47,602 nucleotides of DNA, taken from the IMG/VR virus record IMGVR_UViG_3300033475_000043, positions 1 to 47,602 of that record, one strand, 5' to 3'. This stretch comes from a virus. Taxonomy: Duplodnaviria; Caudoviricetes. Below the pieces are notes generated by a model that saw only the letters and a program-made list of their open reading frames with translations, had not been told where the DNA came from and searched no databases. Every line of letters begins with the position of its first letter. The stretch's first letter is position 1. The position numbers and the translations under genes are program-made. Below, in pieces: positions 2,960 through 45,382 of this stretch.

Positions 2960-2977
2960 AAAACGCTAAAGGCCCGC

Positions 2978-3094
2978 ATGACGCTTGATCCCAAATTGGT
3001 ATTTGTTACGTTGTGGATCACATGGATGCCCGCCGTGGTTATCGTGTTGGCGGTTAGCTTTATCGTGTTCTTGTGTCAGACCCTAAAGCAATAG
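2978..3094 (+). CDS. Array ORF: 38 aa single-TM membrane peptide
   Basis: MTLDPKLVFVTLWITWMPAVVIVLAVSFIVFLCQTLKQ; starts after one motif and stops in the TAG of the next. Confidence 0.7.
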   Translation: MTLDPKLVFVTLWITWMPAVVIVLAVSFIVFLCQTLKQ

Positions 3095-3213
3095 GCCCGT
3101 TCACCGAGCCAGTGCCGGGGAGTGGTGCGGACTGGAACCAGAGGGCCCGACGACCCGGCCGACCTGAGCAAGTCGCATAAAAGGCTCAAAGGATAGAAAG
3201 GTAAAAGGCCCCG

Positions 3214-3309
3214 ATGACTCGTCACCAGCGAGGAAGTCAGGCAGGAGGCAAGGAACATGCTGCGTGCCATGGAGTGCAACAAGAGTTCTTTAGTCCACAG
3301 GATGACTAA
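3214..3309 (+). CDS. Array ORF: 31 aa peptide (possibly degenerate)
   Basis: MTRHQRGSQAGGKEHAACHGVQQEFFSPQDD follows TAAAAGGCCCCG. Confidence 0.35.
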   Translation: MTRHQRGSQAGGKEHAACHGVQQEFFSPQDD

Positions 3310-3321
3310 ATGAAGCCCACA

Positions 3322-3471
3322 ATGGACCTCGAAAAGAGAGCGCGGAAATTAACGACAGAACTCCTGGAGGCTGAGATCAGCAATGTGGACCCGGACGATA
3401 CAGCCACCATATGTGCCCGGTGGCACTTCCTGATAATGGAAGCCTTCAAAGAAATTGCTCACACGCGATAG
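3322..3471 (+). CDS. Array ORF: 49 aa helical protein
   Basis: MDLEKRARKLTTELLEAEISNVDPDDTATICARWHFLIMEAFKEIAHTR; bounded by the variants TGAAGCCC and TAGGCCA; alternative in-frame ATG at 3310. Confidence 0.65.
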   Translation: MDLEKRARKLTTELLEAEISNVDPDDTATICARWHFLIMEAFKEIAHTR

Positions 3472-3477
3472 GCCAGT

Positions 3478-3651
3478 ATGACCGAGCGCGAGGACAAGAT
3501 CAGGGAGGCAAGGCTGCGTCAGCCCCTCTCCGAGCTTGAGCGCAAGTCTGATAAGGCGGCTCGTCCGGGTTGGTGGACGCAAGAGGACTTGGACTTAGCG
3601 AAACGGAAAGCGCGAGAGCTGTACAAATATTTCAAATGGAAAATGGAATAG
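3478..3651 (+). CDS. Array ORF: 57 aa charged protein
   Basis: MTEREDKIREARLRQPLSELERKSDKAARPGWWTQEDLDLAKRKARELYKYFKWKME; stop lies within the motif. Confidence 0.7.
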   Translation: MTEREDKIREARLRQPLSELERKSDKAARPGWWTQEDLDLAKRKARELYKYFKWKME

Positions 3652-3661
3652 GCCCGTATCC

Positions 3662-3898
3662 ATGACCAAGGTGGGAGCAGACAGCGATAATGGGTTCTAC
3701 TTCATGACTGCATACGAAGGTCGCTGGAAAAATTTGGGATGGCATGAGCTTTCCGATGAGGAAATTGCAGACTACCTCCGAGTTTCAGAGGAGTTCAACG
3801 CGTGGCAAACCAAACTGGCTAAAATATCAGATGAATATATTCCGCCGACCGAACTTACGTTGGTTGATGCCGGATATGGTCCATTCACAAAGCGCTAA
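3662..3898 (+). CDS. Array ORF: 78 aa acidic protein
   Basis: In the ORF track; bounded by motifs at both ends. Confidence 0.75.
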   Translation: MTKVGADSDNGFYFMTAYEGRWKNLGWHELSDEEIADYLRVSEEFNAWQTKLAKISDEYIPPTELTLVDAGYGPFTKR

Positions 3899-3908
3899 AA
3901 GGCCCATC

Positions 3909-4100
3909 ATGAAGGTTCTAAAATACTGGAAGACAGTTCCACTTGGCTTGGCCGGGTTCACATACGAGCTAGTCCCTATGCGGGAAGTTCGGGAAGACGA
4001 GTCGGCGTTCAAGTATATCGTGGATGTCGTTAAGGCTTCCGACTGTGACTACACCATCACCGAGCATTCCCAGGAAGTGCTCGAAAGCAGAATGCAATAG
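3909..4100 (+). CDS. Array ORF: 63 aa protein
   Basis: MKVLKYWKT...ESRMQ; the motif-adjacent ATG 3909 is preferred over the track start at 3744. Confidence 0.7.
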   Translation: MKVLKYWKTVPLGLAGFTYELVPMREVREDESAFKYIVDVVKASDCDYTITEHSQEVLESRMQ

Positions 4101-4109
4101 GCCCGTATC

Positions 4110-4301
4110 ATGCCGTGTATGTCGCCTTGGGAACCGGAGCCGTGTCCCTTGTTGCAAGTCGAGATCGGGAATAGAGAGGCAGCCTTTGACAGCGCGGCAA
4201 AACTACGCGCTGAGGTCGAGCGGCAGTCAGCCGCTCTACAAAAAATAGCCGACGCCGCGACAACTCCAATCGCAATAGCTCGCGAAGCACTCAAACGCTA
4301 A
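4110..4301 (+). CDS. Array ORF: 63 aa coiled-coil protein
   Basis: Contains AKLRAEVER; bounded by motifs. Confidence 0.7.
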   Translation: MPCMSPWEPEPCPLLQVEIGNREAAFDSAAKLRAEVERQSAALQKIADAATTPIAIAREALKR

Positions 4302-4309
4302 AGGTCCCA

Positions 4310-4378
4310 ATGAGTTATGAGAACATCCAGCAGGAAGCCGCGCGAGCCATCCACGGCAAGCGTCGGCCAAAGTTATAG
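4310..4378 (+). CDS. Array ORF: 22 aa peptide
   Basis: MSYENIQQEAARAIHGKRRPKL fills the interval between two motifs exactly. Confidence 0.55.
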   Translation: MSYENIQQEAARAIHGKRRPKL

Positions 4379-4385
4379 GCCCGTT

Positions 4386-4508
4386 ATGATCACGCTACTG
4401 GTCAGGAATGAAGGCGTCTATGTGTTGAAGGATGGCAAGCCAATCCATGGGCCAGTGTCAGCTTATGAAGCTGGACGCTTACTCGTGCAAGAGAAACGAA
4501 AGCAATAG
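4386..4508 (+). CDS. Array ORF: 40 aa protein, apparent paralog of 6381-6569
   Basis: MITLLVRNEGVYVLKDGKPIHGPVSAYEAGRLLVQEKRKQ. Confidence 0.7.
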   Translation: MITLLVRNEGVYVLKDGKPIHGPVSAYEAGRLLVQEKRKQ

Positions 4509-4514
4509 GCCCCG

Positions 4515-4670
4515 ATGACCGCCGCCTTTGATAAGTACATCGAGAAATGCCAAGAGTGCGCCAAACTACGCGCCGAGGTCGAACGGCTGACTCGTGAACG
4601 CGACGAGTGGAAGTCCAAATGGATGGCACTGGCACAGGCGAGCCTGATCGCCGGTACAATGAAGTTATAG
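4515..4670 (+). CDS. Array ORF: 51 aa coiled-coil protein with CxxC
   Basis: MTAAFDKYIEKCQECAKLRAEVERLTRERDEWKSKWMALAQASLIAGTMKL. Confidence 0.7.
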   Translation: MTAAFDKYIEKCQECAKLRAEVERLTRERDEWKSKWMALAQASLIAGTMKL

Positions 4671-4677
4671 GCCCGTC

Positions 4678-4848
4678 ATGCTGTTCAAGATCGTACCAAT
4701 CTTCATCGGCTTCGTGTTCTGCGTGATCGTCGCCTTCTGGGTCGGGCTTGGTTACGTCGCCTATAATGGCTACCAAGCTGGGCCGGATGGCCTCGGTCGG
4801 GCAGTCGGGAAATTCATCGGCGGAATCGAATCTGGTCGTAAGGAATAG
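4678..4848 (+). CDS. Array ORF: 56 aa membrane protein
   Basis: MLFKIVPIFIGFVFCVIVAFWVGLGYVAYNGYQAGPDGLGRAVGKFIGGIESGRKE. Confidence 0.72.
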   Translation: MLFKIVPIFIGFVFCVIVAFWVGLGYVAYNGYQAGPDGLGRAVGKFIGGIESGRKE

Positions 4849-4855
4849 GCCCGTC

Positions 4856-5011
4856 ATGATCCGTAGCCCGCTATATCGACGCAAGGGTGCCGAAGCGTGG
4901 GCGCACGGCCTACCGATCTCTGCCAATCCGTATCGGCAGAGTTATGCTCGCGATGCTTGGCGTGCTGGCTGGATGCGAGCCAGAGACCAAGCCCATCAAA
5001 TCTGGAACTGA
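4856..5011 (+). CDS. Array ORF: Rmf/CrpP-like small protein
   Basis: G..A...G....NPY......AW..GW..A pattern resembling the ribosome modulation factor family. Confidence 0.6.
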   Translation: MIRSPLYRRKGAEAWAHGLPISANPYRQSYARDAWRAGWMRARDQAHQIWN

Positions 5012-5030
5012 AACGCTAAAGGCCCGTATC

Positions 5031-5222
5031 ATGACGCAAGAACAGTTAAAGAGTATCGCCACCTGTTGTCGTAATAGCGCCGCCATGCTTCGAATTGCGG
5101 ATGCGGAGGATTACGACAAAGAAAAGCGCGAGCGCATCCGTGAACTCAACCGAAAGCAAGCCGAGCTTTTGATGACAAGTGCCAGGATGCTAGAAGACGC
5201 GTGCGAACCCGTAGAGTTATAG
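5031..5222 (+). CDS. Array ORF: 63 aa helical protein
   Basis: MTQEQLKSIATCC...EPVEL; bounded by motifs. Confidence 0.7.
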   Translation: MTQEQLKSIATCCRNSAAMLRIADAEDYDKEKRERIRELNRKQAELLMTSARMLEDACEPVEL

Positions 5223-5228
5223 GCCCCA

Positions 5229-5414
5229 ATGATTCAGAAGCCGCCTCCCCCTACTTGCGCAGCCGGATTGCCGCTACCGCGCTCCTGGGCCGATCCGTGC
5301 GAATACTGTGGGGCGACATCCGATGACATCTGTCGGTTGGCAGATGACATGAGTCCGAATGAGATCAGGAAAAACATGGCCGCCGTGAAGCGCGGCGAGC
5401 GACCTGAGATTTAG
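5229..5414 (+). CDS. Array ORF: 61 aa putative zinc-finger protein
   Basis: C...CEYCGATSDDIC motif. Confidence 0.65.
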   Translation: MIQKPPPPTCAAGLPLPRSWADPCEYCGATSDDICRLADDMSPNEIRKNMAAVKRGERPEI

Positions 5415-5448
5415 TTATAGGCCCCGATGACCTGAAAGGTGAACAGGC

Positions 5449-5598
5449 ATGACCGCCGAACAGGCAATGCTAGTCGCGCGTCGGCTAGTTGAAGATCACA
5501 TCGAGATTTACGGGATGGTTCCGCATCCTGACAAGCTCAAAGAGGCAATCGCTCGTGAGCTTTCCAAGGTAGCATCTATTAACCCGTATCGCGTCTAA
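5449..5598 (+). CDS. Array ORF: 49 aa protein with its own SD
   Basis: MTAEQAMLVARRLVEDHIEIYGMVPHPDKLKEAIARELSKVASINPYRV; AAGGTG SD; preceded by the mini-ORF ATG ACC TGA at 5427. Confidence 0.65.
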   Translation: MTAEQAMLVARRLVEDHIEIYGMVPHPDKLKEAIARELSKVASINPYRV

Positions 5599-5631
5599 AG
5601 CGCAATACATGAAACGCTAAAGGCCCCGATC

Positions 5632-6369
5632 ATGCAATTCGCAATCAAAAACCTCCGGACCGGCAAAGTCCAATTCACCGCCGAGATTGAGTGCGACGAA
5701 GATACACCGCTTTCGATCAAAATCGGCTTGGCCGTCAAATGGGCGATCAAGGCGCGTGCCAACCTCGCGGGCGCCAACCTCGCGGGCGCCGACCTCGCGC
5801 GCGCCAACCTCGCGGACGCCTACCTCACGGGCGCCAACCTCACGCGCGCCAACCTCACGGACGCCTACCTCGCGGGCGCCGACCTCGCGGGCGCCTACCT
5901 CGCGGGCGCCGACCTCGCGGACGCCTACCTCACGGGCGCCAACCTCACGCGCGCCAACCTCACGCGCGCCAACCTCACGGACGCCTACCTCACGGGCGCC
6001 AACCTCACGCGCGCCAACCTCACGCGCGCCAACCTCGCGGGCGCCAACCAAGAACTTCTTGACGTTCCAGTCGTTCCTAAAATTGATCAGCTAATTCTTT
6101 CCGCCATCGACGCTGGCGGGACGTTGAATATGGGATCCTGGCACGGCCCAGAAGGCTGGTGCGGTACGACGCATTGTCGTGCTGGCTGGGCTGTGCACTT
6201 GGCAGGCGAAAAAGGCAAAGCGCTTGAAGACAGAATCGGGACCCAACGCGCTGGTGCAATGATCTACCGAGCCTCGCGTCCAGGCAAGCCAGCGCCATGG
6301 TTCTTTGGGCCAAATGACGAGGCGATGGAAGACATTCGTAAATGCGCGGCGGAGCAGAGTGTGGAATAG
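5632..6369 (+). CDS. Array ORF: pentapeptide-repeat protein
   Basis: 19 A(N/D/Y)Lxx repeats followed by a C-terminal domain with WH...[10 protein letters not shown]. Confidence 0.9.
5758..6048 (+). repeat. 15-bp tandem repeat (GCC(A/G/T)ACCTC(G/A)CGNNC) x19
   Basis: Directly visible; encodes the pentapeptide repeats. Confidence 0.95.
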
Positions 6370-6380
6370 GCCCGCGTTAT

Positions 6381-6569
6381 ATGAGCATTTATACTCCGCC
6401 TCCATCAACCCTCCGTATCGAGCACAAATCAGACGGATGGTACGTCATGGACAAATTCGGACCGTGCTATGGTCCGGTTACCTCCGTGATGGAAGCTACC
6501 GACATAATTCATGCGGCGCATGAAGCATGGTCAGGCGCCTCGGCGTGGTTTCCGCGAAAAGATAAATAG
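6381..6569 (+). CDS. Array ORF: 62 aa protein, apparent paralog of 4386-4508
   Basis: MSIYTPPPSTLRIEHKSDGWYVMDKFGPCYGPVTSVMEATDII...; bounded by motifs. Confidence 0.7.
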   Translation: MSIYTPPPSTLRIEHKSDGWYVMDKFGPCYGPVTSVMEATDIIHAAHEAWSGASAWFPRKDK

Positions 6570-6577
6570 GCCCCCCC

Positions 6578-6646
6578 ATGACTGAGTGCCGTATCGCACA
6601 GCAAAAGCAAAATGATCTTATCGAATCGTTGCCTCACAGCGTTTAA
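6578..6646 (+). CDS. Terminal array ORF: 22 aa, possibly a remnant
   Basis: MTECRIAQQKQNDLIESLPHSV follows the last motif and overlaps a convergent gene. Confidence 0.3.
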   Translation: MTECRIAQQKQNDLIESLPHSV

Positions 6647-6818
6647 GATCTTGAGTCATTATTGCACAATCCTGCACACGTTCGTGGCGCCGCTCCCGAT
6701 CAAGCTTGACAACAATCGCCATTATCAAAACGATTACGCCAAGCAGGCATATGGCAAGCGTGGCGTGATCACTCATCGCAGGCATCCAGAGCCAAATTTG
6801 CGTATCCTGAAATATCAA
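6618..6818 (-). CDS. Small single-TM protein
   Basis: Hydrophobic segment LAICLLGVIVLIMAIVV; start uncertain. Confidence 0.5.
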   Translation of the reverse strand: MIFQDTQIWLWMPAMSDHATLAICLLGVIVLIMAIVVKLDRERRHERVQDCAIMTQDLKRCEATIR

Positions 6819-7023
6819 GCCAATGATCTTTGAAATTGTAATGTCCAGATAAGATTCGAGACATTTTCAAAGCAATCATGTCAAGCGCTTCACGATGCAC
6901 ATCAGGCAAGTCGTCGCATTCTGCAATGATATGCTTGATCTTTTGAGAAATCCGTGCATTTGCCTCAAAATCTCCGTGAGTCTTGTTGCGTTCTTTAAGC
7001 AACATGGCAACAGGCTTAGTCAT
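6769..7023 (-). CDS. DUF6378-like phage protein
   Basis: L.ER..THGDF...MIALKMSRI.....DHWLDISGYA pattern. Confidence 0.75.
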   Translation of the reverse strand: MTKPVAMLLKERNKTHGDFEANARISQKIKHIIAECDDLPDVHREALDMIALKMSRILSGHYNFKDHWLDISGYANLALDACDE

Positions 7024-7038
7024 TCAGACCTCTCAAAG

Positions 7039-7073
7039 AAAAAGCCCGGCAATGACCGAAGTCATAGCCGGGC
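7039..7073 (-). terminator. Rho-independent terminator of the late/lysis operon
   Basis: Minus-strand hairpin GCCCGGCTATGAC-TTCG-GTCATTGCCGGGC followed by TTTTTCTTT. Confidence 0.85.
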
Positions 7074-7117
7074 AAGTTTAGGGAGGGACACGCCCCATGA
7101 GGGGGCACCGGACGACC

Positions 7118-27994: not shown

Positions 27995-28617
27995 TAGCGC
28001 GAGGTCACCACGATTGCGGGTTGTCGGCCATCGGAGCGGTTCCCTTTATGGCCGCCGACAATCTGGCCGCCGATAGGTGTGCGATAAGTGAAACTCACCT
28101 TGGCTGAATTCCCGAACTTGCGAGCGGCGAGAACCGCGACGACCTGATAGACGCCATCCGGCGCCTGACTTGAACTGCCGCGCTCAATCTTACGTGCATA
28201 GGGCTGTGCATTGAGGAAGACATATTCCTGTGCTTCAGGGACTTCCTGGCCTGCATCCACTTCCTGGCCATCCGCAAACAAGATGTGAGACTTTGAATAG
28301 CGGGCTGTTTTCTTTGGCGAAAACGTCACCAATTGATCGGCAATCCAGGTCAAGGCATCGAGCAAAAGCGACCATTCGGCAACAACCGTTCGCTGAACGC
28401 TTTTGATCGGAGCATTTATCCGGCCGTCGACGCTAATGGTGTATTTGGCAGGGTGACCGAGGATCTGGCTATTCTTGGCTTGCGTTTCGTCGATCTGTTC
28501 TTTTGCGAAGTCGGCAAGGATCTTCTGGCGCGCCGCAACGCCTAGAGCGTCATTTAGAAAAACATTGATGTCACGGCTTACCGTTTTCACCCGAATTGGG
28601 ACGAAGGCTAGCGCCAT
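27994..28617 (-). CDS. HK97 gp10-like neck/tail completion protein
   Basis: SP.KT.RY..SH and N.QPYARKIE.G.S.QAP.GVY. Confidence 0.75.
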   Translation of the reverse strand: MALAFVPIRVKTVSRDINVFLNDALGVAARQKILADFAKEQIDETQAKNSQILGHPAKYTISVDGRINAPIKSVQRTVVAEWSLLLDALTWIADQLVTFSPKKTARYSKSHILFADGQEVDAGQEVPEAQEYVFLNAQPYARKIERGSSSQAPDGVYQVVAVLAARKFGNSAKVSFTYRTPIGGQIVGGHKGNRSDGRQPAIVVTSR

Positions 28618-29219
28618 AGTTTTTCCAACTCCACCTTCGAGTATGCCTTAAGGGCCGAGCTCGGCGAAGCATTCAAAACCTCAATCCCGAGCCGTTCAAA
28701 TTGCGGCGCACAGGCATCCATTGCCACGCGCCAGGAATCCATCCGCCCCTTATCTGGCGGACTTACACCTTTGTCGTCGGCCCAATGCGCGCCTTCGGTC
28801 ATGTGCATATCCCAGCCAACTAGGATTAGGCGCGTGGCGCCAAACTGGATGGCGAGATTTGCGGCTTGGAAGCCGGAATAGCCGCCCCCCTGATCAAGTC
28901 CACATCCGACGTACCCGGTTTCGCCGGTAAGAAGCTCGGCCCGACTTTTCAGCCGGATCAATGTCACATCCTGATAAACCCGGCAGATCGTCGGGCTGGG
29001 CGAAAACTTCCGACCCCTAAACTTCTTTCCGCCCTGAGATGCCAGCCACCAGTGCCTGTCGATGCCGTACAGCGCGTCCGCCCACGGTGCCGCGCGCCAG
29101 GCGCCCTTGATGACGAAAACACGCGCACGGCCTTGTATGGCCCATAGCGGCGCCAATCTCAGGCTAGGCCCGGTTCCGACAATGACCGCGGTCGATCCAG
29201 ACCAATCCGGCCAATGCAT
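28608..29219 (-). CDS. MptE/Maf (DUF115)-like, sialyltransferase-fold protein
   Basis: IVGTGPSL...GGYSGFQAANLA...GA.R.ILVGWDM...LNAS..SAL; paralog of 38939-39574. Confidence 0.65.
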   Translation of the reverse strand: MHWPDWSGSTAVIVGTGPSLRLAPLWAIQGRARVFVIKGAWRAAPWADALYGIDRHWWLASQGGKKFRGRKFSPSPTICRVYQDVTLIRLKSRAELLTGETGYVGCGLDQGGGYSGFQAANLAIQFGATRLILVGWDMHMTEGAHWADDKGVSPPDKGRMDSWRVAMDACAPQFERLGIEVLNASPSSALKAYSKVELEKLWR

Positions 29220-29554
29220 CAGCCCCGAACTTGCAATTCGAGTGCGATCAGCGTTTCGCCGACCCGGCGCGTATTACCGTCAATCGCCAAGATAGCCAGT
29301 TCTTTACCGCGAACGACAAGCTTGTCGTTTTTCGTGATCGGTAGGAGCTCAAGCGCATCATCGGCATATACGATCACGCGCTGGTCACCTTGCGTCACAG
29401 CGCCGACCAGTTCTTGCGGCTGATAGGCCACAATCCGAGCCCTTACTTCCGTATCGCTTGAATTGCGCGTTAGACCAGACCCGCTAAACCTTCGTATAGA
29501 GACCCTATCCTGAAGTGCGCTCCGATAGGACGCCTTGACCTCGTCTGCGTTCAT
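29219..29554 (-). CDS. Head closure / head-tail adaptor
   Basis: Y.P.EL.G...QGD..VI...ND.LV..G.E..I...ELQVRG pattern. Confidence 0.75.
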   Translation of the reverse strand: MNADEVKASYRSALQDRVSIRRFSGSGLTRNSSDTEVRARIVAYQPQELVGAVTQGDQRVIVYADDALELLPITKNDKLVVRGKELAILAIDGNTRRVGETLIALELQVRG

Positions 29555-30219
29555 GCATACGCCGGATTTTTATAGGGTCGAACAAGTGCGTCGACCTCTG
29601 GCGGTAATGCTGTATCGCCGACCGCGCCGACCCAATAAGTGTATTCAGCCACGCCGGGGATATTTTCAGCTCGAAGGGTTCGGTCGCGTCCTTTACTCGA
29701 GTAGGCGTTTGCCACGAGCAGCGTTGCGGCACGCTGCAAGTCTGCCGGGATAGCGCCACCGGCATAACCAGCGTCATAAGTCACAATGGTCTGCTGACTT
29801 CCCCACGCGCAGCGTCCAGACCCTGACACTCTCCAAACTTGGCCAGTGCCGCTATCGAATTCATAGGCAGATGAGTCTAGCGGGCTTCCGCCTTCCGTAA
29901 TAGAGCTGATCGCGACAACTGGTGTGGTCGAAAGGATTAGCGGGGGATACTGACCAAAACCTCTCCACGAACCGTAATTCGTCCAGGACACGGGATCCCG
30001 GAAATAGTCAGTAATGCTGTCCAATGTGAACTTGCGGTTAGCCGCTGAGCTAATTGACTTCGACGCCGCGGCAATGACCGTCTCTAGCCAATCGTCGCGA
30101 TCAGGGTCAACGGTGTCAGTCAGACCCAATTCAAGCTTGACCATATCGAGGTCAGTCAGCAGCCCGCTTGATGTGGGCGAGCTGCCGCTGTCCGCGACGA
30201 CCGTTCGATATGGCTGCAT
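29551..30219 (-). CDS. Head-tail connector (gp6-like)
   Basis: LT.L..VK.ELG, VTY.AGY...IPADL..A and LPPEV.AL..PY. Confidence 0.85.
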   Translation of the reverse strand: MQPYRTVVADSGSSPTSSGLLTDLDMVKLELGLTDTVDPDRDDWLETVIAAASKSISSAANRKFTLDSITDYFRDPVSWTNYGSWRGFGQYPPLILSTTPVVAISSITEGGSPLDSSAYEFDSGTGQVWRVSGSGRCAWGSQQTIVTYDAGYAGGAIPADLQRAATLLVANAYSSKGRDRTLRAENIPGVAEYTYWVGAVGDTALPPEVDALVRPYKNPAYA

Positions 30220-30792
30220 CTATTCCGCTCCTGCCAACCAAGCTGCAGTTGGAAAGCCAAGTGCTTCGCGCGTCCGTCCGCTCATTGAACGAACCCTACC
30301 GGCAAAGTGCAGCTGATAGTCTTTGAAACCATGCATATATACGTCTGCCTCACGCCACGGTTCGCTACGCTTGAAGTGCTTACTTCCATCAAGCGGCACA
30401 CCGGCAAGAACGATACGATCAAAGCCATCTTCAAGCGCGACCTTCACAGCATAGACGCCAGACGATGGCGAGCGCGTCTTATTGTCGTATCTGTAGGATA
30501 CTTGCCGCATTGATCGCACTGCGTAGGCATATGCCGGTGCTTCATCCTTGAGCGGGGCAACAATATCGTATCCGTTCGGATAGCCGAGCTTATGCCGTTC
30601 CTCTTCCATATGGCCCATACGTTCCGGATGCAGGGTAACCCACACCTGAAACTTCGCAGGCCAATACACACCAGCAAGCTTGACGCAGTAGGTCGCATCA
30701 AACTCACCTATCTTGCGCGCCTGCTCCACATCTTTCCAAAGGTTGTTGGCGCAACCGACGATCAAGCAACTCTTCACTGGATCAGCCGCCAC
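30220..30792 (-). CDS. MptE/Maf-like sialyltransferase-fold protein
   Basis: LIVG.A...W.TLHPE, SSGVYAVKVAL..GFDRIVLAGVPL and RVRSMSG.T. Confidence 0.55.
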   Translation of the reverse strand: MAADPVKSCLIVGCANNLWKDVEQARKIGEFDATYCVKLAGVYWPAKFQVWVTLHPERMGHMEEERHKLGYPNGYDIVAPLKDEAPAYAYAVRSMRQVSYRYDNKTRSPSSGVYAVKVALEDGFDRIVLAGVPLDGSKHFKRSEPWREADVYMHGFKDYQLHFAGRVRSMSGRTREALGFPTAAWLAGAE

Positions 30793-31589
30793 AAAGTTCC
30801 GTCGAGCAGTTCGGCTTCATTAAACTGCGAGTATGCGAGCGAATAAAGCCATGGTTCGCGATCCGGATAGGCAGGCTTCTCGATGGATCGCAGGTCAGTC
30901 ATACCGACTAAAGCCGCTGCACTATCCGGATGCACAAACACAGGACAGCCAAGAATAACACTCTCGACCGCTGCGATTGACCCATGCGTGACAAGCGCAT
31001 GCGCGCCAGCCAAGTCTTGCTGTAATGGCCGCTTGCTTTCCTTGTCCCGAATAATGAGTTGACGATCTGTTACTCGCGCAAGCGCGTCGATCGTGTCGGC
31101 TATCCAAGATTCGCAGCGGTGGAACCGCGCATAAGTCCTTGTTGGTGCCGCGATGACAATATGGCGACCATTTCTGGACCAAGGCTGAACATCGGTTTTA
31201 AGTGCCTTCCAACGATCGGCAGGAAGGTTTCTAACCGCCCGTAACTGGAACGACCCGACGTGCCAACGATAATACCCGCCAGCATCCCCACGAGGCAGCC
31301 ACGTCGCGAATACTCGTCTTGCATAGCCGCGATCCCAATAAATCCATTGCCGTCCGCGTGCACGCCAACCGACGATCGGAATAGTCGATTCCGGCTGACA
31401 CCCGACAACCGGAATAATCTCGTCTGGCAATTGCTCAAGCAACTGCGCGTCGTTCTTAACAACGCGCCCCCCGCCTGCCTCAATGTGCCGGCCTATTCGA
31501 TTGAACAGGTCCAATTTAAATTTTTTCAAGCCTGGCGGGATGTAGAGACAGACTTTACTTCGATCTATCGCCAATGCTTCCGAACCCAA
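30774..31589 (-). CDS. Capsule_synth/KpsS-like (GT-B) glycosyltransferase
   Basis: YWDRGY, IIRDK and L..AHALVTHGS.AAVE..ILG.PVFV. Confidence 0.6.
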   Translation of the reverse strand: MGSEALAIDRSKVCLYIPPGLKKFKLDLFNRIGRHIEAGGGRVVKNDAQLLEQLPDEIIPVVGCQPESTIPIVGWRARGRQWIYWDRGYARRVFATWLPRGDAGGYYRWHVGSFQLRAVRNLPADRWKALKTDVQPWSRNGRHIVIAAPTRTYARFHRCESWIADTIDALARVTDRQLIIRDKESKRPLQQDLAGAHALVTHGSIAAVESVILGCPVFVHPDSAAALVGMTDLRSIEKPAYPDREPWLYSLAYSQFNEAELLDGTLWRLIQ

Positions 31590-32182
31590 TCAAGATTTAA
31601 AAGCTGATGCGGCTTAGGCACGCCATGAAAATAAACGATCTTGGCCGAACCGACGCCAACATCCCGCACCTTAGCCGCCTTACAACTGATAACCTGGCCC
31701 GGCCATAAATCGTCCATCGCATCCCATTTAAACCGACGCAACCATTCCATGTCATTCTCGTCGCGCCAAAGCTCAAACACACTGGCATGACCGCGAGGAA
31801 CCAGAACAATCGGATTGATCAACTGCTCTGGCTTGTAAGGATCTCGCGGCGCGCAAATTTTTGTATTCTTTTCGCAGTAGTTCGCTAAATGGTTGACATT
31901 GTCCAGAACGATTGTGTCAAGCCCACAAATGATGCTCGGTTCATTCAACTTGAACGGTTCAATCAAGCACCCAAAATGCGGAACTTCAGTCTCAAGCCGT
32001 TGCTGCTCGACACCATCGCAGAACTGATATTCACGATCCGTGAATACAACGAACCTGAAATCCTTTGTCAGGTTTCTCTTGAATCCTCGGTAAAGCTTGT
32101 CAACCCATGACGGGTCAAAACAGGTTGAATTCGGAGCGGTATATTTATTCTTAGACCAGTAACAGCATGCAACTGTTACCAC
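31565..32182 (-). CDS. GT-A-fold glycosyltransferase-like protein
   Basis: V.KLYRG.KRNL...FRFVVFTD, GLDT and IVYFHG.PKP. Confidence 0.7.
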   Translation of the reverse strand: MVTVACCYWSKNKYTAPNSTCFDPSWVDKLYRGFKRNLTKDFRFVVFTDREYQFCDGVEQQRLETEVPHFGCLIEPFKLNEPSIICGLDTIVLDNVNHLANYCEKNTKICAPRDPYKPEQLINPIVLVPRGHASVFELWRDENDMEWLRRFKWDAMDDLWPGQVISCKAAKVRDVGVGSAKIVYFHGVPKPHQLLNLDWVRKHWR

Positions 32183-32739
32183 TTAGCCACGCGCATCCGA
32201 TCGACTTGACGACGGTCGATCTCGACAATCGTTCCGTTGTGCTTAAACAAATGCCACGGCGGAACATTGCGAGTTACCACAGCGCCAGCCGCGATCATAG
32301 CGCTGCGTCCAATCATGACGCCGGCTAGAAGTACTGCATTCGCCCCGATGCTCGCGCCATCCTCAATCCGCGTTGTAATCAGTTCACCGCTTAGCAGGAG
32401 GTCCATTCGGAAACCTTCCTTGCTAGCGCGTGGCCAACCGTCATTACACATTGACACATGCGGCCCGACAAACACGTCGCTGCCGATCAGAATACCCGGA
32501 TCAATAAATGCGCCGTGCGAAACAATAACCCGATCGCCAAGTCGGCTTCCGTCGACAATCGCACAACTCGCAATCGAGCAGTCCTCGCCAACGCGCGCCC
32601 CGCGGATGACGGAGGCGAATTGCCAAACTCGCGTACCTGCTCCGATGTGTGTGTCGTGATCACATTCGGCCTGCGCGTGAATTTCCGCAGTTTCTGCCCA
32701 GCCTTCAGGCGGTGCAGGTGCCATTACACTCATTGCCAA
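32176..32739 (-). CDS. Hexapeptide-repeat (left-handed beta-helix) sugar N/O-acetyltransferase
   Basis: IGAGTRVWQF, VFVGPHV and GASIGANA....GV.IG..AMIAAGAVVT.NVP. Confidence 0.85.
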   Translation of the reverse strand: MAMSVMAPAPPEGWAETAEIHAQAECDHDTHIGAGTRVWQFASVIRGARVGEDCSIASCAIVDGSRLGDRVIVSHGAFIDPGILIGSDVFVGPHVSMCNDGWPRASKEGFRMDLLLSGELITTRIEDGASIGANAVLLAGVMIGRSAMIAAGAVVTRNVPPWHLFKHNGTIVEIDRRQVDRMRVAKW

Positions 32740-33305
32740 ATGATCCCGATACCGTAGTAATTACTGCGCTTGTACAACTTGATCTCTTTATTCCGATAGT
32801 CTGACTTTATTTCGTTCCAAAGTTTGGAAACGCCCATCGGTTTAGTTGCCCGACCTGGAATTTTACTTTTCCAGGTTTCATTCCAAGCGATATCATGAAA
32901 CGCAACCATACGGCCCATAGAACCATAATTTTTCCAATCCGCTGCAACGCCTTCGTAACTATGATCACCATCGATAAAAACACAATCAAACGGCCCTAAT
33001 TTGTTAACTTCATCAATTATAAACTCGTGTTTGCTATCGCCTAAAATCAGATGCGCATCACGCCCAGATTCATTTAGGCGGCCTATGCACTCTTCAAAAT
33101 TCCTATGCGCCTTTGTATCTGGCGTCCGGTCAACTGCGACAATCCGAGAACCAACCGGAAGATAATTTCCTGTGCGCCAGAGAGAGCCGCCGTAACCAAG
33201 CCCTATTTCAAGATAGGTTGAAACGGCTTCTGCTCTTAAGATCTTCAAAAATGCGTCGTGCTCGGCTTTATCCTGAAGCAACCTAGCCTCATAGTCCGGC
33301 TTCAT
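32730..33305 (-). CDS. SAM-dependent methyltransferase (Methyltransf_24-like)
   Basis: YLEIG.GYGGS, FIDGDHSY and VAFHDI. Confidence 0.85.
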   Translation of the reverse strand: MKPDYEARLLQDKAEHDAFLKILRAEAVSTYLEIGLGYGGSLWRTGNYLPVGSRIVAVDRTPDTKAHRNFEECIGRLNESGRDAHLILGDSKHEFIIDEVNKLGPFDCVFIDGDHSYEGVAADWKNYGSMGRMVAFHDIAWNETWKSKIPGRATKPMGVSKLWNEIKSDYRNKEIKLYKRSNYYGIGIIWQ

Positions 33306-33991
33306 TGCCAGTGCTCTTTCACCCACGGCAAGGAAACGAACTGCGACGGGTCTCGGTTACCGGGGAAGCAAACAATTCGCGCGTTCGACGGGAGCGCGTC
33401 ACCCTTCGGCCAAGCAGGCTTACGGAACGCATAGATCCCGCTTTCACCCACCTTCCAACCGGGGGCGCCGGGGAGCTTGTGCGCGAACCATCCTTGATCG
33501 TCGGGAAACTCATAGAATGGAACACGCGATGCAGCCTCAATAGAAAAATCTTCCCAAACATCGTGCCGCCAACCTGCCCTGACCATCCAGACTGAACCAT
33601 TGTACGGACACGGATTCGCTGCATTGGCGCCTTGCAAGATCAGAAAGTCAGCGGATGTATTGAATAAGTAATCAATTGACCCTGTGATCACGCTGTCTAG
33701 ATCAAGGCAAACGATGCGGTCGCCGATGTTAAAATGCCATTCTTGAAATTCTCGATCGAAGATACGCAGACGAGCAAAGCACCCTTTGATCTTTGTAAGT
33801 TCAAGATCACGAATGAGCGGAACGATCTCGACCTCATTTCCCATTTTGTCCAGGCCGTCCCGGTAAAGGTCGTCCGTGATTAACATCAGCCGGTGATTGC
33901 AAACGCTGTGTCGGCGAATTGATCCGAAAAGGCGTTTGACGTATTCCAGATCGTACTTTTCGCCCCACAGGAACGTTACGTACGTCAGCAT
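33302..33991 (-). CDS. GT-A-fold glycosyltransferase-like protein
   Basis: WGEKY...YV.RL, LDLDSVI.G.ID, NGSV, DQ.W and RIVCF.G..DP. Confidence 0.75.
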   Translation of the reverse strand: MLTYVTFLWGEKYDLEYVKRLFGSIRRHSVCNHRLMLITDDLYRDGLDKMGNEVEIVPLIRDLELTKIKGCFARLRIFDREFQEWHFNIGDRIVCLDLDSVITGSIDYLFNTSADFLILQGANAANPCPYNGSVWMVRAGWRHDVWEDFSIEAASRVPFYEFPDDQGWFAHKLPGAPGWKVGESGIYAFRKPAWPKGDALPSNARIVCFPGNRDPSQFVSLPWVKEHWQ

Positions 33992-34196
33992 GTATTGCCT
34001 GTGCTTCCTCGATCACTAACGTTGCCTGATCAAAAAGATCAGAATGCAATTGCGGATCTTTGTCGATTGCTTCGCTCGCAGCCTTCATGGCCGCAGAAAA
34101 ACCTTCAATTTTCAGCTCAGACCACAAAGGCGCACCCGGCTGCGCGGTGCGTTCGTAATAGAGACGCGCCAAGATTGGGAACGGAACTGAAGTCAT
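33834..34196 (-). CDS. Hypothetical protein
   Basis: ATGA overlap with the upstream gene; 3' part overlaps the next gene. Confidence 0.4.
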   Translation of the reverse strand: MTSVPFPILARLYYERTAQPGAPLWSELKIEGFSAAMKAASEAIDKDPQLHSDLFDQATLVIEEAQAIHADVRNVPVGRKVRSGIRQTPFRINSPTQRLQSPADVNHGRPLPGRPGQNGK

Positions 34197-34861
34197 TTGC
34201 GCAACATCACCGCGGTATAGTCGATCTTCTCTAGCCGACTAATCATATCGCCGCCGAAGTATTCATCGACCGCCTTCCGAGCCCCTTGCCAGTGCCCATA
34301 GTCATCAACGATCAGAACGCCACCGGTTGGCACAAGCGGCCAGAGAACTTCAAGTTCAATCTTGGTCGAGGCATACCAGTCAGTATCAAGGCGGAGCAAC
34401 GCAATTTGTTCAGGCAACGGTCCACTCTTAAGCGTTTGGCAAACGTCACCCTCGACATACCTAAGCTTCAATTCGTCATTAACGCCAAGCTTTTCCATTG
34501 TCTCGATGACTTCAGACGCCGGAGACTTGTTCCACTTCAGCCCCTTAGCGCGCATTTCGCCGAACTTCTTTGAAGCCGGCTGTCCGTTCCTGTGAAGATC
34601 TTGCTGACCAGGCTTCGTCATTCCATCGAACGTATCGTATAGCCAGCAAACACGGTTTGGCGAAACCATACGAGCTAGAGCAATGGATCCGCCTTTCCAC
34701 ACGCCACATTCAACTACATCTCCGACTACTTCGTATTTGTCCAGATCGACAAGCGCGTCGATTAAAGCAACCCTTCGCTCTATGCTCGTCTTTGTATACG
34801 GCGCAACCGCATAGCAAAGAGACTCTTTCCATTTATCCATTAACGAATCGCGCTCGGTCAT
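34193..34861 (-). CDS. TylF/MycF-family sugar O-methyltransferase
   Basis: GDVVECGVWKGGS, YDTFDGM, IALLRLDTDWYAST and IVDDYG.W.G.RKAVDEY; start uncertain (34861 or 34840). Confidence 0.88.
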   Translation of the reverse strand: MTERDSLMDKWKESLCYAVAPYTKTSIERRVALIDALVDLDKYEVVGDVVECGVWKGGSIALARMVSPNRVCWLYDTFDGMTKPGQQDLHRNGQPASKKFGEMRAKGLKWNKSPASEVIETMEKLGVNDELKLRYVEGDVCQTLKSGPLPEQIALLRLDTDWYASTKIELEVLWPLVPTGGVLIVDDYGHWQGARKAVDEYFGGDMISRLEKIDYTAVMLRK

Positions 34862-35402
34862 TCCACAACACACCGATTCCATTATGACGTTGCTGAAAGC
34901 GAATCTCGACAAACGGCTCCTGCCTCACACTGAGCCAAAACGCCTTGGTTTCGATCGCTGTCTTTCCATCCTTTGGTTCATGTGAAATGTCGTGCATAGC
35001 TACCATCTTCGCGAGCGGAGAATAATTTTGCCAATCTGCCGTTACGCCGGCAGTTGAATGATCTCCATCAATAAACACACAATCAAATTGGCCAAACTTT
35101 TTTACGAACTCAACAGTCTTCGACATTTGTGAATTGCCAGACACAAGCTTACCGCGATGACCCATGGCGACAATCGTTTTTAACGCGTCGTCAAGTTCGT
35201 CGCGCGGTTCACTGTCAACCATTACAATCAAACTCGGAACTATAAGGGCATGTGCAACTTGTAGCGCAGATCCTCCTTGATATGAACCAATCTCAAGATA
35301 TGAACGAACGTTCTCGCGTCGCAAGATATCAAGAAACCAAGAAAATTCAGAAGGATTCTGCTTTGTCTTCATGGCGAGAGAAGCAGGTTTTGGTCCTGGC
35401 AT
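34833..35402 (-). CDS. SAM-dependent methyltransferase (Methyltransf_24-like)
   Basis: YLEIGSYQGGS, FIDGDH and HDI. Confidence 0.85.
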   Translation of the reverse strand: MPGPKPASLAMKTKQNPSEFSWFLDILRRENVRSYLEIGSYQGGSALQVAHALIVPSLIVMVDSEPRDELDDALKTIVAMGHRGKLVSGNSQMSKTVEFVKKFGQFDCVFIDGDHSTAGVTADWQNYSPLAKMVAMHDISHEPKDGKTAIETKAFWLSVRQEPFVEIRFQQRHNGIGVLWNDRARFVNG

Positions 35403-35405
35403 GAT

Positions 35406-35477
35406 TTATCCATAAGCCTCAATTAGAATATACATCATCAACACAAAGCCAATGATTACCAGTATTCCCTCGACCAT
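35406..35477 (-). CDS. 23 aa single-TM peptide (not in ORF track)
   Basis: MVEGILVIIGFVLMMYILIEAYG fills an intergenic gap. Confidence 0.35.
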   Translation of the reverse strand: MVEGILVIIGFVLMMYILIEAYG

Positions 35478-35523
35478 CCTTCACCGTAAATCAAAACTAG
35501 TAGCACAGCTAATGCCGCGCCTA

Positions 35524-36141
35524 TCAAAGGCCATGCAAGCCAATACATGTGTCCGCAGCAGTGTGTATACCGATCACATTAGCCCCCTCGACAATGGCAA
35601 CAACACCTGGAATGTCAGTCGCCCCATTCCACGCAATCGGTGCATCGTAAAGATTTCCGTTGTGTGCATATTCGACTAACAAATGAATATCCGAGAACTT
35701 CACGCCTTGCGGTAGAGTATCAACTTGCGCAAGAGCGGTTTCGGCTGCAACAATGGCATGAACCATTGGAGCTGGCATGTGAACCGTAAGACCTTCGGTC
35801 AATCCAGGAAATATTGCAGTATATGTCCCTGGTGAAATTTCCGAGATCTGCATTGTCAGCGTTTCGCCTGGATGAACCGTAACCGCGTGATCCGCAGTCG
35901 TCCCATTCGTCCCAGGAATCAGCGGGTAGACATTATCCTGTACCTGCCAAACATGCTGACCCGAATTCCATATCAGCAGGTTTTGCACAACCATAGAATT
36001 GTTCTGATCCTGGAATCCGATCCAGTAAAAAAACAAATTCGATGGATTATTAGTTGGCGCATCTGGAACAGTCAGGACAGCATCAAATTGAGCAAGATGG
36101 CCAGCCGCAAGATGTGCTAGTTGATAAGCGAATTCGTTCAC
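35524..36141 (-). CDS. Hypothetical beta-rich protein
   Basis: GTGA overlap with an upstream micro-ORF; VP..P...FYWIG.Q....VVQ..L.W pattern. Confidence 0.6.
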   Translation of the reverse strand: MNEFAYQLAHLAAGHLAQFDAVLTVPDAPTNNPSNLFFYWIGFQDQNNSMVVQNLLIWNSGQHVWQVQDNVYPLIPGTNGTTADHAVTVHPGETLTMQISEISPGTYTAIFPGLTEGLTVHMPAPMVHAIVAAETALAQVDTLPQGVKFSDIHLLVEYAHNGNLYDAPIAWNGATDIPGVVAIVEGANVIGIHTAADTCIGLHGL

Positions 36142-36245
36142 CTAAGGCCCATAGCCCGCAACGCGCCGCTCCAGGCCCAAGCAAAAAACCAAAGAGATAA
36201 TCCAACACTGCCCATAACAATTAAAAATAGGCAAAATGCAAACAT
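36138..36245 (-). CDS. 35 aa single-TM peptide (not in ORF track)
   Basis: MFAFCLFLIVMGSVGLSLWFFAWAWSGALRAMGLR; its stop overlaps the next start. Confidence 0.45.
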   Translation of the reverse strand: MFAFCLFLIVMGSVGLSLWFFAWAWSGALRAMGLR

Positions 36246-36283
36246 TAAATCAGCCCAGCAAACATATGGTTTTTTAATTCTCG

Positions 36284-36862
36284 TTAATGCCACAAGACAC
36301 CTATGCCCATGTTGCCGCCCGCCGACCTATCAATAAACGTCTGGCTTCTATAAGCGACGCGGAGCTGTTCCCAGAGTTGTGGAACCTCGACAAACTTGCT
36401 ATTTTGATAACCTTCAGGAACCTTCCAGCCGACGTCATGAAAGGCGACTATGCGCGCCATCGGACCGTAATTCTTCCAATCAGCAGTTACGCCAGCTAAT
36501 TCGTGGTCGCCATCTATAAACACGGCATCATATGGGCCAAGCTTTTGCACCTGTCTGACAACGTGATCGTATTGCGACTCACCTTTGATCAAATGCGTGT
36601 CATAGCCGCGCACCTTCAGAACCCGCACGCATTCCTCTAGCGACTCAACAGCGCCAGCCTGTCGGCCGCCCATACCCTTGCCGCTATCACAAGAGACAAG
36701 GCGCGACCCTTTGGGCAGCACCTTGGCAATACGCCATAGCGATCCGCCAAAGCGAGAACCAATCTCAAGAAAGCGTGTGACGTTTTCGGCCTTAAGAATA
36801 TCAAGGAATTGCGAGAACTCGGTTTCAACCTGCGAGATCCTGGTTTCATATAAACGATTCAT
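36284..36862 (-). CDS. SAM-dependent methyltransferase (Methyltransf_24-like)
   Basis: FLEIGSRFGGS, FIDGDH and VAFHDV; third paralog. Confidence 0.85.
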   Translation of the reverse strand: MNRLYETRISQVETEFSQFLDILKAENVTRFLEIGSRFGGSLWRIAKVLPKGSRLVSCDSGKGMGGRQAGAVESLEECVRVLKVRGYDTHLIKGESQYDHVVRQVQKLGPYDAVFIDGDHELAGVTADWKNYGPMARIVAFHDVGWKVPEGYQNSKFVEVPQLWEQLRVAYRSQTFIDRSAGGNMGIGVLWH

Positions 36863-37425
36863 TGACGCTTCCAAATTGCCGCAATACCAAGCTCGTCAGA
36901 CATATGGCTTGTATGAATTCGCTTAAGCCCCACGTCACCCAAATCTCCGTCCAGTTTCTTCATCTCTTTGAAATTGGCCGAATGATCGTGGCTGGTGCCG
37001 CGCCATGCAAACCACCGGATCGTGCGCCTACCAAGATGCCGCATAAGCTCCGATAGAAGCGCAGGATCCATCTGGCGTTTAAGTTTGTGATAAGTGGCAA
37101 GTAATGTAACGATATCGTATCCACCATCCCCGAAAGGCTTTAGTGCTGCCGGACCACAACGAAGGTCGACGACCTCGAATTGCGACTTGACTGCGCGCAA
37201 ATCGACAAACCAGTTCCGCGCAGTCTTGATGCTGTCGCTATCGATATCGCATCCATGAACAATGCGCGCGCCATTATTGAAGAAATCGAAGCAGACTTTG
37301 CCACGATTGCAGCCGACATCCAGAACGGACATTCCGCCAGCACGAACTAGCAAATCTATGATCCCGTCAAGCCGTTGGTCAGTGAAGCCGGCCACACGGG
37401 CTTGAGGTCTAACTTCCTTGCTCAC
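36859..37425 (-). CDS. Class I SAM-dependent methyltransferase
   Basis: SVLDVGCNRG...HGCDID...YDIV..LATYH. Confidence 0.85.
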   Translation of the reverse strand: MSKEVRPQARVAGFTDQRLDGIIDLLVRAGGMSVLDVGCNRGKVCFDFFNNGARIVHGCDIDSDSIKTARNWFVDLRAVKSQFEVVDLRCGPAALKPFGDGGYDIVTLLATYHKLKRQMDPALLSELMRHLGRRTIRWFAWRGTSHDHSANFKEMKKLDGDLGDVGLKRIHTSHMSDELGIAAIWKRQ

Positions 37426-38195
37426 TTCAAATATGCCCTTGCAGCAGATTCCACTTCGTCAACACTAATCGCCATCATTGCTTGCAAACAGTGATCGCAT
37501 TTGAAGAGCGATCCGCACGCTTCCGCGCCGCCCGTCAAATTGGTGTGCATGTCGTAACCAGTGACTTGCGGCGGAATGAACCCCCCAAACATCACAACGG
37601 CGGGAACCCCGAGCGCAGCCGCCGCATGATGCAGTCCGCCCTCAGGCCCGATATAGAGAGCAGCGCTTTTGAGTATGGACGCGGCCTCGCGAAACGTTGC
37701 TGACTTGATATAGCCAGCGCTTGGAACACGATGCCCAGCCCCATAAACAAATTGGACAACTTTAAAGCCAGATATGCGAAGATTAAGAGCAACCTGATCA
37801 TAACGCTCCGTTGGCCATTGCTTGTTGGGAGCCACACTCTTGAAACGAGGAACTTGTGGCTCAATAACAACAAAACCCTTGCCGTGAAGCTCTGCGCGTT
37901 TCAGCTCCGGTTGTCGCCAAACGAACTCGCCAGGTTTAGCTTTGAAATCGTAATTCCAAACCCAACGATTGCCATCTTGCTTGTTATAGATTCTATGGCC
38001 GCGATAGAAGCTGACCCACTCAAGCTGTTTTGAAAGTTCTTCTCCTGGACGCGCGACATTTTCGTTGTAGCGAAAGATTGGTTCAGAGAAGTGATCCCAG
38101 ATTATCTTCCGGCCGTCGCCGAATGCGACTCGCCGACCGCGCTTGGATGCGCCTCTTGCCATACCAGAGGCCATGATGTTGTCGCCAACGCCCAC
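37422..38195 (-). CDS. GT9 (heptosyltransferase-like) glycosyltransferase
   Basis: GVGDNIM, NKQWP.ERY and ALYIGPEGGLHHAAAALGVPAVVMFG. Confidence 0.85.
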   Translation of the reverse strand: MGVGDNIMASGMARGASKRGRRVAFGDGRKIIWDHFSEPIFRYNENVARPGEELSKQLEWVSFYRGHRIYNKQDGNRWVWNYDFKAKPGEFVWRQPELKRAELHGKGFVVIEPQVPRFKSVAPNKQWPTERYDQVALNLRISGFKVVQFVYGAGHRVPSAGYIKSATFREAASILKSAALYIGPEGGLHHAAAALGVPAVVMFGGFIPPQVTGYDMHTNLTGGAEACGSLFKCDHCLQAMMAISVDEVESAARAYLK

Positions 38196-45254: not shown

Positions 45255-45382
45255 CTTGCGAATTCCTGATTGTTGGAATCGCGAGACGCCGCGAAAAGTC
45301 AGTTCAGTGAGACAGCAACAGCATCCCAAGACACCAGGCGCCAATGCATGTCAAAACTAGAAAAGCAAAAGCCACACAGGGC

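Follow-up and report, generated by a model that had tools for sequence, protein, structure and literature searches.

A repeated AGGCCC junction between small genes in arrays of several phages

Phages carry many small orphan genes, and how these are gained and reshuffled is not yet settled. Here we describe a rightward array of 18 small, mostly unrelated open reading frames (ORFs) in a 47,602-nucleotide phage contig (IMG/VR record IMGVR_UViG_3300033475_000043; this whole stretch is called the window), in which a repeated junction with the core AGGCCC separates the genes. Among described systems, integron arrays are defined by attC hairpins, the integrase IntI and a GTTRRRY core. The array resembles them in its promoterless small genes in one direction, its single promoter, the divergent gene, the variable cargo and a breakpoint at the repeat, but it has no attC hairpin, no GTTRRRY core and no integron integrase. 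As an earlier note on this sequence had stated, attC palindromes are absent: no inverted repeat was found flanking the junctions, and stop-to-start gaps of 6-12 nt offer too little room for an attC hairpin. The window integrase does not match the IntI model TIGR02249, the integrase of a second array phage (G001) reaches 15.4 bits, the cut-off being 265, and a position profile of 78 sites gives A-rich/T-AGGCC in place of GTTRRRY. Xer/pdif sites are 28 bp long with inverted arms around a fixed 6-bp spacer; in the junction family, the spacer to ATG runs from 0 to 7 nt and the flanks are not inverted, and a dif-like site was rejected for this variable spacing. The ‘linker’ or ‘boundary’ sequences of lambdoid phages are short, conserved, located at gene boundaries and proposed to guide modular exchange. 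Such linkers bound modules at fixed genome positions, whereas the family described here repeats at nearly every gene.

Two further systems are closer. Promoter early stem-loop elements (PeSLs) of T4-type phages, like the array junctions, are repeated intergenic expression signals that flank the ORFans of variable regions. Genes are deleted or moved by crossovers between PeSL copies; these crossovers map between the Shine-Dalgarno (SD) sequence or ATG and the -10 box, and no dedicated recombinase was identified (PMC2839356). PeSLs carry an early promoter and stem-loops for each gene, whereas the array has one promoter, lacks a promoter plus stem-loop at each element, has no junction hairpin and shares 6-16 nt of identity. 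The start-associated sequences (SAS) of cluster K mycobacteriophages, with consensus GGGATAGGAGCCC, are described as asymmetric elements in one orientation, a few nucleotides before the ATG of non-structural genes, with an SD core followed by a conserved CCC and sometimes containing the upstream stop codon (PMC3203893). The array is alike in each of these respects; SAS lie 3-7 bp before ATG, and 15 of the 16 exact array copies lie 2-7 nt before it. SAS mostly occupy gaps of more than 50 bp, lie scattered across the right half of the genome and carry 17-bp inverted repeats in about half of the cases (PMC3203893). In contrast, 13 of the 18 array gaps are 6-12 nt, the copies are consecutive, the SD lacks its AG and the host is likely alphaproteobacterial. 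By eye, no array junction agrees with the 13-bp SAS consensus with at most two deviations, because AG is missing from them and their left side is different. The paper that named SAS leaves their function open (PMC3203893).

The array junction works like PeSLs and resembles SAS, yet it is neither of these nor an integron. A literature search that covered few subscription journals and no supplements found no description of the junction family. The explanation we favor, and consider probable though with considerable reserve, is that a portable stop/weak-SD/start junction serves small genes and that its repeats channel gene exchange through general short-homology recombination, with selection for whole expressed genes.

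The junction and the genes it bounds

The count in the earlier note was reproduced: there are 16 exact AGGCCC copies on the plus strand between 2970 and 6573, of which 11 are TAGGCCC, three TAAAGGCCC and two TAAAAGGCCC. None of the nine other plus-strand copies in the window, and neither of the two minus-strand copies, is followed by ATG at the array spacing. Markov simulations of the array yield means of 1.4-2.7 AGGCCC (16 seen) and 0.2-0.5 AGGCCC-N1-8-ATG (15 seen), and shuffles of the whole window give 2.6 +/- 1.75 and reach 15 in none of 100. The core lies within 16 nt of a candidate start in 0 of 52 minus-strand ORFs, as expected if the motif is not an SD variant used genome-wide. The junction family is non-random, is common to several phages and is confined to small-gene operons behind divergent promoters.

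The full unit is longer than six bases and consists of an A-rich left half ending in a stop codon, AGGCCC, a spacer of 2-7 nt and ATG. Left halves recur letter for letter (AAACGCTAA, AAAGCAAT, AAGTTAT, GGAAT), and they are kept at 2959 and 5009, where no gene ends. Tiling by tiny genes was confirmed, with 18 ORFs of 22-245 amino acids (aa) across the array, although several generalizations in the earlier note hold only in part. Of about four proposed degenerate copies, three clear ones precede an ATG (3313, 3470 and 4302) and the fourth (3182) does not. The motif supplies the upstream stop codon in 11 of the 16 exact copies and not in the remaining five. The rule of one gene per motif-to-motif unit fails at 3093, which heads a non-coding unit, and at 5419, which heads a 2-codon ORF with a gene behind it that has its own SD. 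The units are as follows, from left to right.

2596-2624, +: predicted sigma-70-like promoter facing the array, 10/12 consensus match
2651-2857, +: first ORF (68 aa); ordinary SD with strong pairing (-8.9 kcal/mol) and no junction; weak phrog_10501 match (E 0.003)
2850-2969, +: structured non-coding stretch ahead of the first junction; fold z -2.6, no Rfam match
2970-3094, +: junction 2970 and ORF 2978-3094 (38 aa, hydrophobic)
3093-3205, +: junction 3093, lacking ATG, and non-coding unit; fold no better than shuffles
3206-3309, +: junction 3206 and ORF 3214-3309 (31 aa); site of the assembly fork in run X5
3313-3471, +: degenerate junction AAGCCC and ORF 3322-3471 (49 aa; alternative start 3310)
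3470-3651, +: degenerate junction AGGCCA and ORF 3478-3651 (57 aa)
3650-3898, +: junction and ORF 3662-3898 (78 aa); no relative found
3900-4100, +: junction and ORF 3909-4100 (63 aa)
4099-4301, +: junction and ORF 4110-4301 (63 aa)
4302-4378, +: degenerate junction AGGTCC and ORF 4310-4378 (22 aa)
4377-4508, +: junction and ORF 4386-4508 (40 aa)
4507-4670, +: junction and ORF 4515-4670 (51 aa)
4669-4848, +: junction and ORF 4678-4848 (56 aa, DUF7248, hydrophobic); PF23906, E 7e-8, above cut-off
4847-5011, +: junction and ORF 4856-5011 (51 aa, Rmf-like); PF04957, E 3e-7, above cut-off, and below NCBIfam cut-offs
5020-5222, +: junction and ORF 5031-5222 (63 aa); the upstream gene ends before the left half
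5221-5414, +: junction and ORF 5229-5414 (61 aa, Cys-containing); no family match
5419-5598, +: junction, 2-codon ORF 5427-5435 and ORF 5449-5598 (49 aa, own SD)
5621-6369, +: junction and ORF 5632-6369 (245 aa, pentapeptide repeats); PF00805, E 1e-29
6368-6569, +: junction and ORF 6381-6569 (62 aa)
6568-6646, +: last junction and ORF 6578-6646 (22 aa)

The earlier note placed the array behind a strong promoter and a structured leader. The promoter prediction stands, and the segment 2850-2985 folds with a modest z of -2.6 (equally stable in 1 of 200 shuffles), but this ‘leader’ follows the first ORF. The second non-coding unit, behind junction 3093, has a fold z of -0.4, and an Rfam search of array and leader gave nothing credible. 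Promoter and terminator scans of the array are near chance level, with a single promoter-like site (9/12) inside it, in agreement with the proposed lack of per-gene promoters. Two very short plus-strand ORFs occur at junctions (5427-5435, M-T-stop; 5609-5620, M-K-R-stop), and these are perhaps relics of lost units or ribosome relays. The pentapeptide gene contains near-identical 15-bp tandem repeats at 5692-6109. An origin of the junction from a restriction site was rejected, as no single site is common to the variants by eye, and an integron-like age gradient was rejected because two of the three degenerate copies are promoter-proximal.

Related arrays and breakpoints at the junction

After motif scans, a junction filter was applied to 440 sequences, with an array defined as at least four junctions. 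Besides the window, eight other contigs carry arrays, which represent seven other distinct arrays (G002 and G003 share one) that likewise join unrelated small genes, and four more (L120, L288, L313 and G004) carry shorter junction runs. All of the other arrays were found by the motif, and they therefore show sharing and not frequency. Soil metagenomes are the source of the contigs with matches to the array. In the genome collection (43 of 64 parts, 121 loci), a tandem-motif scan found no true array, and in the metagenome collection (21 of 64 parts, 119 loci) it found one, with flanking DNA examined for 80 loci in each. Among 401 Hyphomicrobiales genomes there were 21 motif matches, mostly outside gene junctions, with one real gene pair and no array; the reversed-pattern control (one match) was not a fair one. 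That chromosomal pair (L465 1501-1517) has the same K-E-stop/GCCG/ATG junction form, once.

The most informative relative is G001, whose array of eight exact copies occupies the same slot between a related integrase (38-40% identical) and a DUF6378 gene (59%), with similar promoter placement. The idea that cargo units differ from phage to phage was borne out here: no G001 cargo protein matches window cargo at E 1e-3, and no match was found between the head and tail genes of the two. The family also includes TTGAAGGAATAGGCCC, TGAAYRTAGAGGCC and GGAGCCCC forms. Left halves occur in free combination with different spacers at 90 candidate sites from 12 regions (a few of these sites are probably false), and identical left halves recur in unrelated phages.

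A breakpoint at the junction was obtained independently of the motif search patterns. In soil run X5, record 5 (220 nt, depth 2.5) matches 3206-3235 without difference, and 190 other letters precede 3206. These end in AAAGTTAT; left halves of this class occur elsewhere in the array, and no AGGCCC of the window is preceded by this left context. In the same run, record 3 has the window's version and record 4 begins at 3206. This is an assembly fork at the first base of the core. In runs X1-X4, the longest of the listed pieces that lie outside the pentapeptide repeat span several junctions with at most one difference from the window, and 176 loose ends lie outside the pieces listed; among those listed, all from assembled contigs, no joints within the array were found. 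Single-base variants at window positions 3290 and 3030 (runs X4 and X5) suggest that the window phage is present as more than one strain.

Comparisons between contigs give a mixed picture, in which homology between arrays frequently stops at the core. One gene heads the L298 array and lies inside that of L120; DNA identity stops at TAGGCC, with different genes behind. In G006 (L331 1-90 and 393-482), an exact 90-nt repeat ends at the core and is followed by different genes, which could be a tandem duplication, a circle or an assembly effect. G006 and L313 have a gene start in common from the junction onward and diverge mid-gene. Within the window, 28 nt of ORF 4110-4301 recur in ORF 4515; a 22-nt tail of ORF 4110-4301, together with the junction, is shared with a G001 gene. 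Of 14 shared tracts of at least 28 nt, two are little more than the junction, and three end within the core itself. In each of the four tracts of at least 90 nt, one end lies no more than 10 nt from a core in both copies, a distance that applies to 10.5% of array positions, although one of these ends was selected by the search pattern. The prediction that breakpoints fall precisely at the motif succeeds for the X5 fork and fails for the seven of 14 tracts that lie wholly inside genes. Such a mixture, with some breakpoints at junctions and others mid-gene, is consistent with a process that exploits any short stretch of shared sequence.

Translation, recombination and the proposed mechanism

Evidence for the function of the core comes from a leftward minus-strand operon overlooked in the earlier note. 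It lies behind a divergent promoter pair (2551-2624) and reuses the left halves of the array with a full SD.

2551-2579, -: predicted divergent sigma-70-like promoter facing the leftward operon, 10/12 match
2275-2544, -: 89-aa divergent gene, possible ribbon-helix-helix regulator; Atlas lead only, with no Pfam, PHROG or NCBIfam match
2263-2283, -: leftward junction AAACGATAGGAGCGC plus ATG, stop codon plus full SD
1867-1891, -: leftward junction AAACGCTAAAGGAGCCC (1891-1875) plus GTG, an array junction with AG inserted
1638-1658, -: leftward junction AGCAATAGGGAGAGC plus ATG

Because this operon pairs the same left halves with a full SD, AGGCCC can be seen as a weakened ribosome-binding site. 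The pairing energies with a 16S rRNA tail agree: the 18 array starts have a median of -3.6 kcal/mol compared with -2.2 for 500 random stretches (p 0.001), 27 uncurated late-gene starts are stronger than the array starts at -6.2 kcal/mol (p 0.001), and the three leftward junctions reach -7.7 to -8.3 kcal/mol. Judged from sequence, AGGCCC appears to combine a weakened SD with a conserved CCC, and it is confined to the small-gene operon. Of the two roles offered in the earlier note, stop-restart translation fits, and an RNA-processing element stands only as a rival. Stop readthrough was rejected, as just 5 of 13 stop-start pairs are in frame.

These data raise the alternative that the junction is a conserved translation signal alone, similar to SAS, that spreads by duplication and expression selection, with breakpoints located there because it bounds every gene. 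The SD-like position and pairing, the many intragenic shared tracts, the Hyphomicrobiales pair (1 of 21 matches in 401 genomes) and the AGGAGCCC form in the leftward operon, which matches the SAS core (PMC3203893), all argue for it. However, the breakpoint of the X5 fork is the first core base, three tracts end inside the core, and identical left halves occur in non-coding places and across unrelated phages. We regard this alternative as unlikely, though it deserves to be taken seriously. The earlier note had named an ordinary SD variant, or breakpoints unrelated to the motif, as grounds for doubt, and both apply in part, since AGGCCC resembles AGGAGCCC minus AG and half of the tracts are intragenic.

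A different explanation of the core is an RNA-level site: a phage or host factor would bind or cut the RNA there, or the core would tether the ribosome for restart by pairing with 16S rRNA outside the anti-SD. The CCC is conserved yet unable to pair with the anti-SD, and AAGGCCCG is exactly complementary to one place in a 16S rRNA (position 1323, L447 gene). Against this, an 8-base match in 1481 nt has a chance of about 2% before correction and five nested words were tried, the AGGCCG and TAGCCC variants break the match, and the frame of the stop-start pairs gives no sign of readthrough. The 16S strand at this complement is paired in helix 28. Of the explanations weighed here, we hold this one to be the least probable.

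The array might also be moved by a recombinase. The earlier note linked it to the nearby tyrosine recombinase, and this link is not supported by a comparison of five near-complete array phages (G001, G002, G005, G414 and G415): tyrosine recombinases were found in two (G001 and G414) and serine resolvases in three (G002, G414 and G415), whereas neither was found in G005, a phage with terminal repeats. The five have no site-specific recombinase family in common. The window integrase itself looks like an ordinary phage integrase. A GCATTGAT-type repeat lies 3' of both related integrases, at 889-933 in the window and at L274 12723-12791 in G001, and likely represents attP arm sites.

9-887, +: tyrosine integrase (phrog_1, E 4e-12), probably truncated by the contig start; context only
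889-933, strand not assigned: 9-nt inverted repeat 3' of the integrase, likely attP arm sites, unlike the array junction

Small serine recombinases are a better candidate for site-specific movement of units as cassettes, possibly in trans, with AGGCC as a minimal crossover site. Those of G002, G414 and G415 are related, have an intact catalytic motif and are divergent beside the array promoter, an integron-like layout that keeps a site-specific reading alive for these three phages; crossover in the core would also fit the X5 breakpoint and the way in which halves mix freely. However, serine recombinases are absent from the complete G001 and G005 and were not found in the window, G005 has neither family, the palindrome of the junction is only 4 bases with variable flanks and degenerate cores, and the window integrase is accompanied by att-like repeats of its own and does not match integron integrases. 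The usual target of such resolvases is a res site close to their own promoter. Site-specific movement is therefore quite unlikely in our estimate, and very unlikely is its specific form in which a serine recombinase (in three of the five phages, and in trans elsewhere) captures genes at an AGGCC stop/restart site from a cassette pool across unrelated backbones. The three serine recombinases, each at the head of its array and on the opposite strand, lie at L013 8542-9253, at L298 124-778 and in L415; in that place the window has the 89-aa possible ribbon-helix-helix gene.

Under the favored short-homology explanation, one transcript would start from the promoter at 2596, and ribosomes would restart 6-12 nt past each stop codon, aided by the partial SD. 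Same-direction junction copies would act as short-homology crossover points at which whole small genes are added, lost or swapped. The crossovers would come about through phage annealing proteins, host recombination or slippage during replication, without a site-specific enzyme, and selection would retain swaps at junctions because an incoming gene brings a working stop and start. Annealing or exonuclease genes are encoded by three of the five near-complete array phages (ERF and YqaJ in G002 and G005; an AAA_24 ATPase and a PDDEXK-like nuclease in G001), and phage Rad52-like proteins are reported to recombine short or diverged homology (PMC3945230). Termination-reinitiation coupling likewise places a stop and the next start close together with an SD-like element; coupled pairs typically overlap by 1 or 4 nt (PMC10666635), whereas those of the array are 6-12 nt apart and belong to a repeated, inherited sequence.

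Several points weigh against this explanation. Exact identity between junctions is only 6-16 nt, and the recombination substrate described in the Rad52-like protein study was 800 bp, which is far longer (PMC3945230). Searches of G414 and G415 for ERF, YqaJ, RecT and AAA_24 found none, and the window, 65% complete, is without its recombination module. The X5 fork is one contig of depth 2.5 with 30 matching bases, in which gain and loss are indistinguishable, and seven other runs, which covered only parts of the array, show no such join among those listed. The seven intragenic tracts lie in recurring coding segments and, as gene ends are junctions by construction, random recombination with selection for whole genes would also place ends nearby. 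Reinitiation declines fast as distance grows, which makes gaps of 6-12 nt marginal (PMC10666635). The 16S tail was taken from an Azospirillum genome in place of that of the host, and the conserved CCC is left unexplained by the junction model.

Phage context, cargo and significance

The window is a phage contig estimated by CheckV to be 65% complete, with HK97-like head, tail and lysis genes on the minus strand and the tyrosine integrase at its left edge. Integrase relatives listed among cultured phages are 27-32% identical and come from phages of Rhizobium, Paracoccus, Azospirillum, Komagataeibacter and Brucella. An mmgR/SuhB-like small RNA lies at 7029-7113 (-; E 1.8e-4, 35.1 bits, below the gathering score of 41), directly upstream of the DUF6378 gene. 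From these relatives' hosts and this RNA, we infer that the host is likely an alphaproteobacterium.

6769-7023, -: convergent DUF6378 gene closing the array slot; also in G001 (59% identity)
28608-39574, -: about 12 glycosyltransferase-, methyltransferase- and acetyltransferase-like genes amid head and neck genes, possibly a virion glycosylation cluster
40492-41646: collagen-repeat protein close to these sugar- and transfer-enzyme-like genes
43275-45344, -: single 689-aa ORF that fuses prohead protease and major capsid protein

Family assignments above Pfam cut-offs were obtained for three cargo genes (DUF7248, Rmf-like and pentapeptide). The Rmf-like and pentapeptide assignments of the earlier note are thereby upheld, while its ‘Zn finger’ and ‘coiled coil’ have no passing family match. 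Two cargo proteins matched only themselves among 5.8 billion proteins in a word-based search limited to near lengths, and an Atlas search with ORF 3662 gave no usable match. No viral loci were found with the integrase or the DUF7248 cargo protein as query, and cultured phages gave solely pentapeptide matches among the 20 of 160 records listed. PADLOC, a database of defence and not anti-defence proteins, returned one weak match, below interest, from 19 proteins. The anti-host or anti-defence role that the earlier note proposed for the cargo stays conjectural. No RNA datasets are listed among the holders of array sequence.

The junction family is common to phages with unrelated heads and tails, and one candidate breakpoint within it is resolved to a single base. 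It can now be tested whether 6-16 nt of repeat suffice to channel gene exchange, and what role the conserved CCC behind a phage SD has. The motif also provides a handle for finding candidate host-interaction gene arrays in alphaproteobacterial phages.

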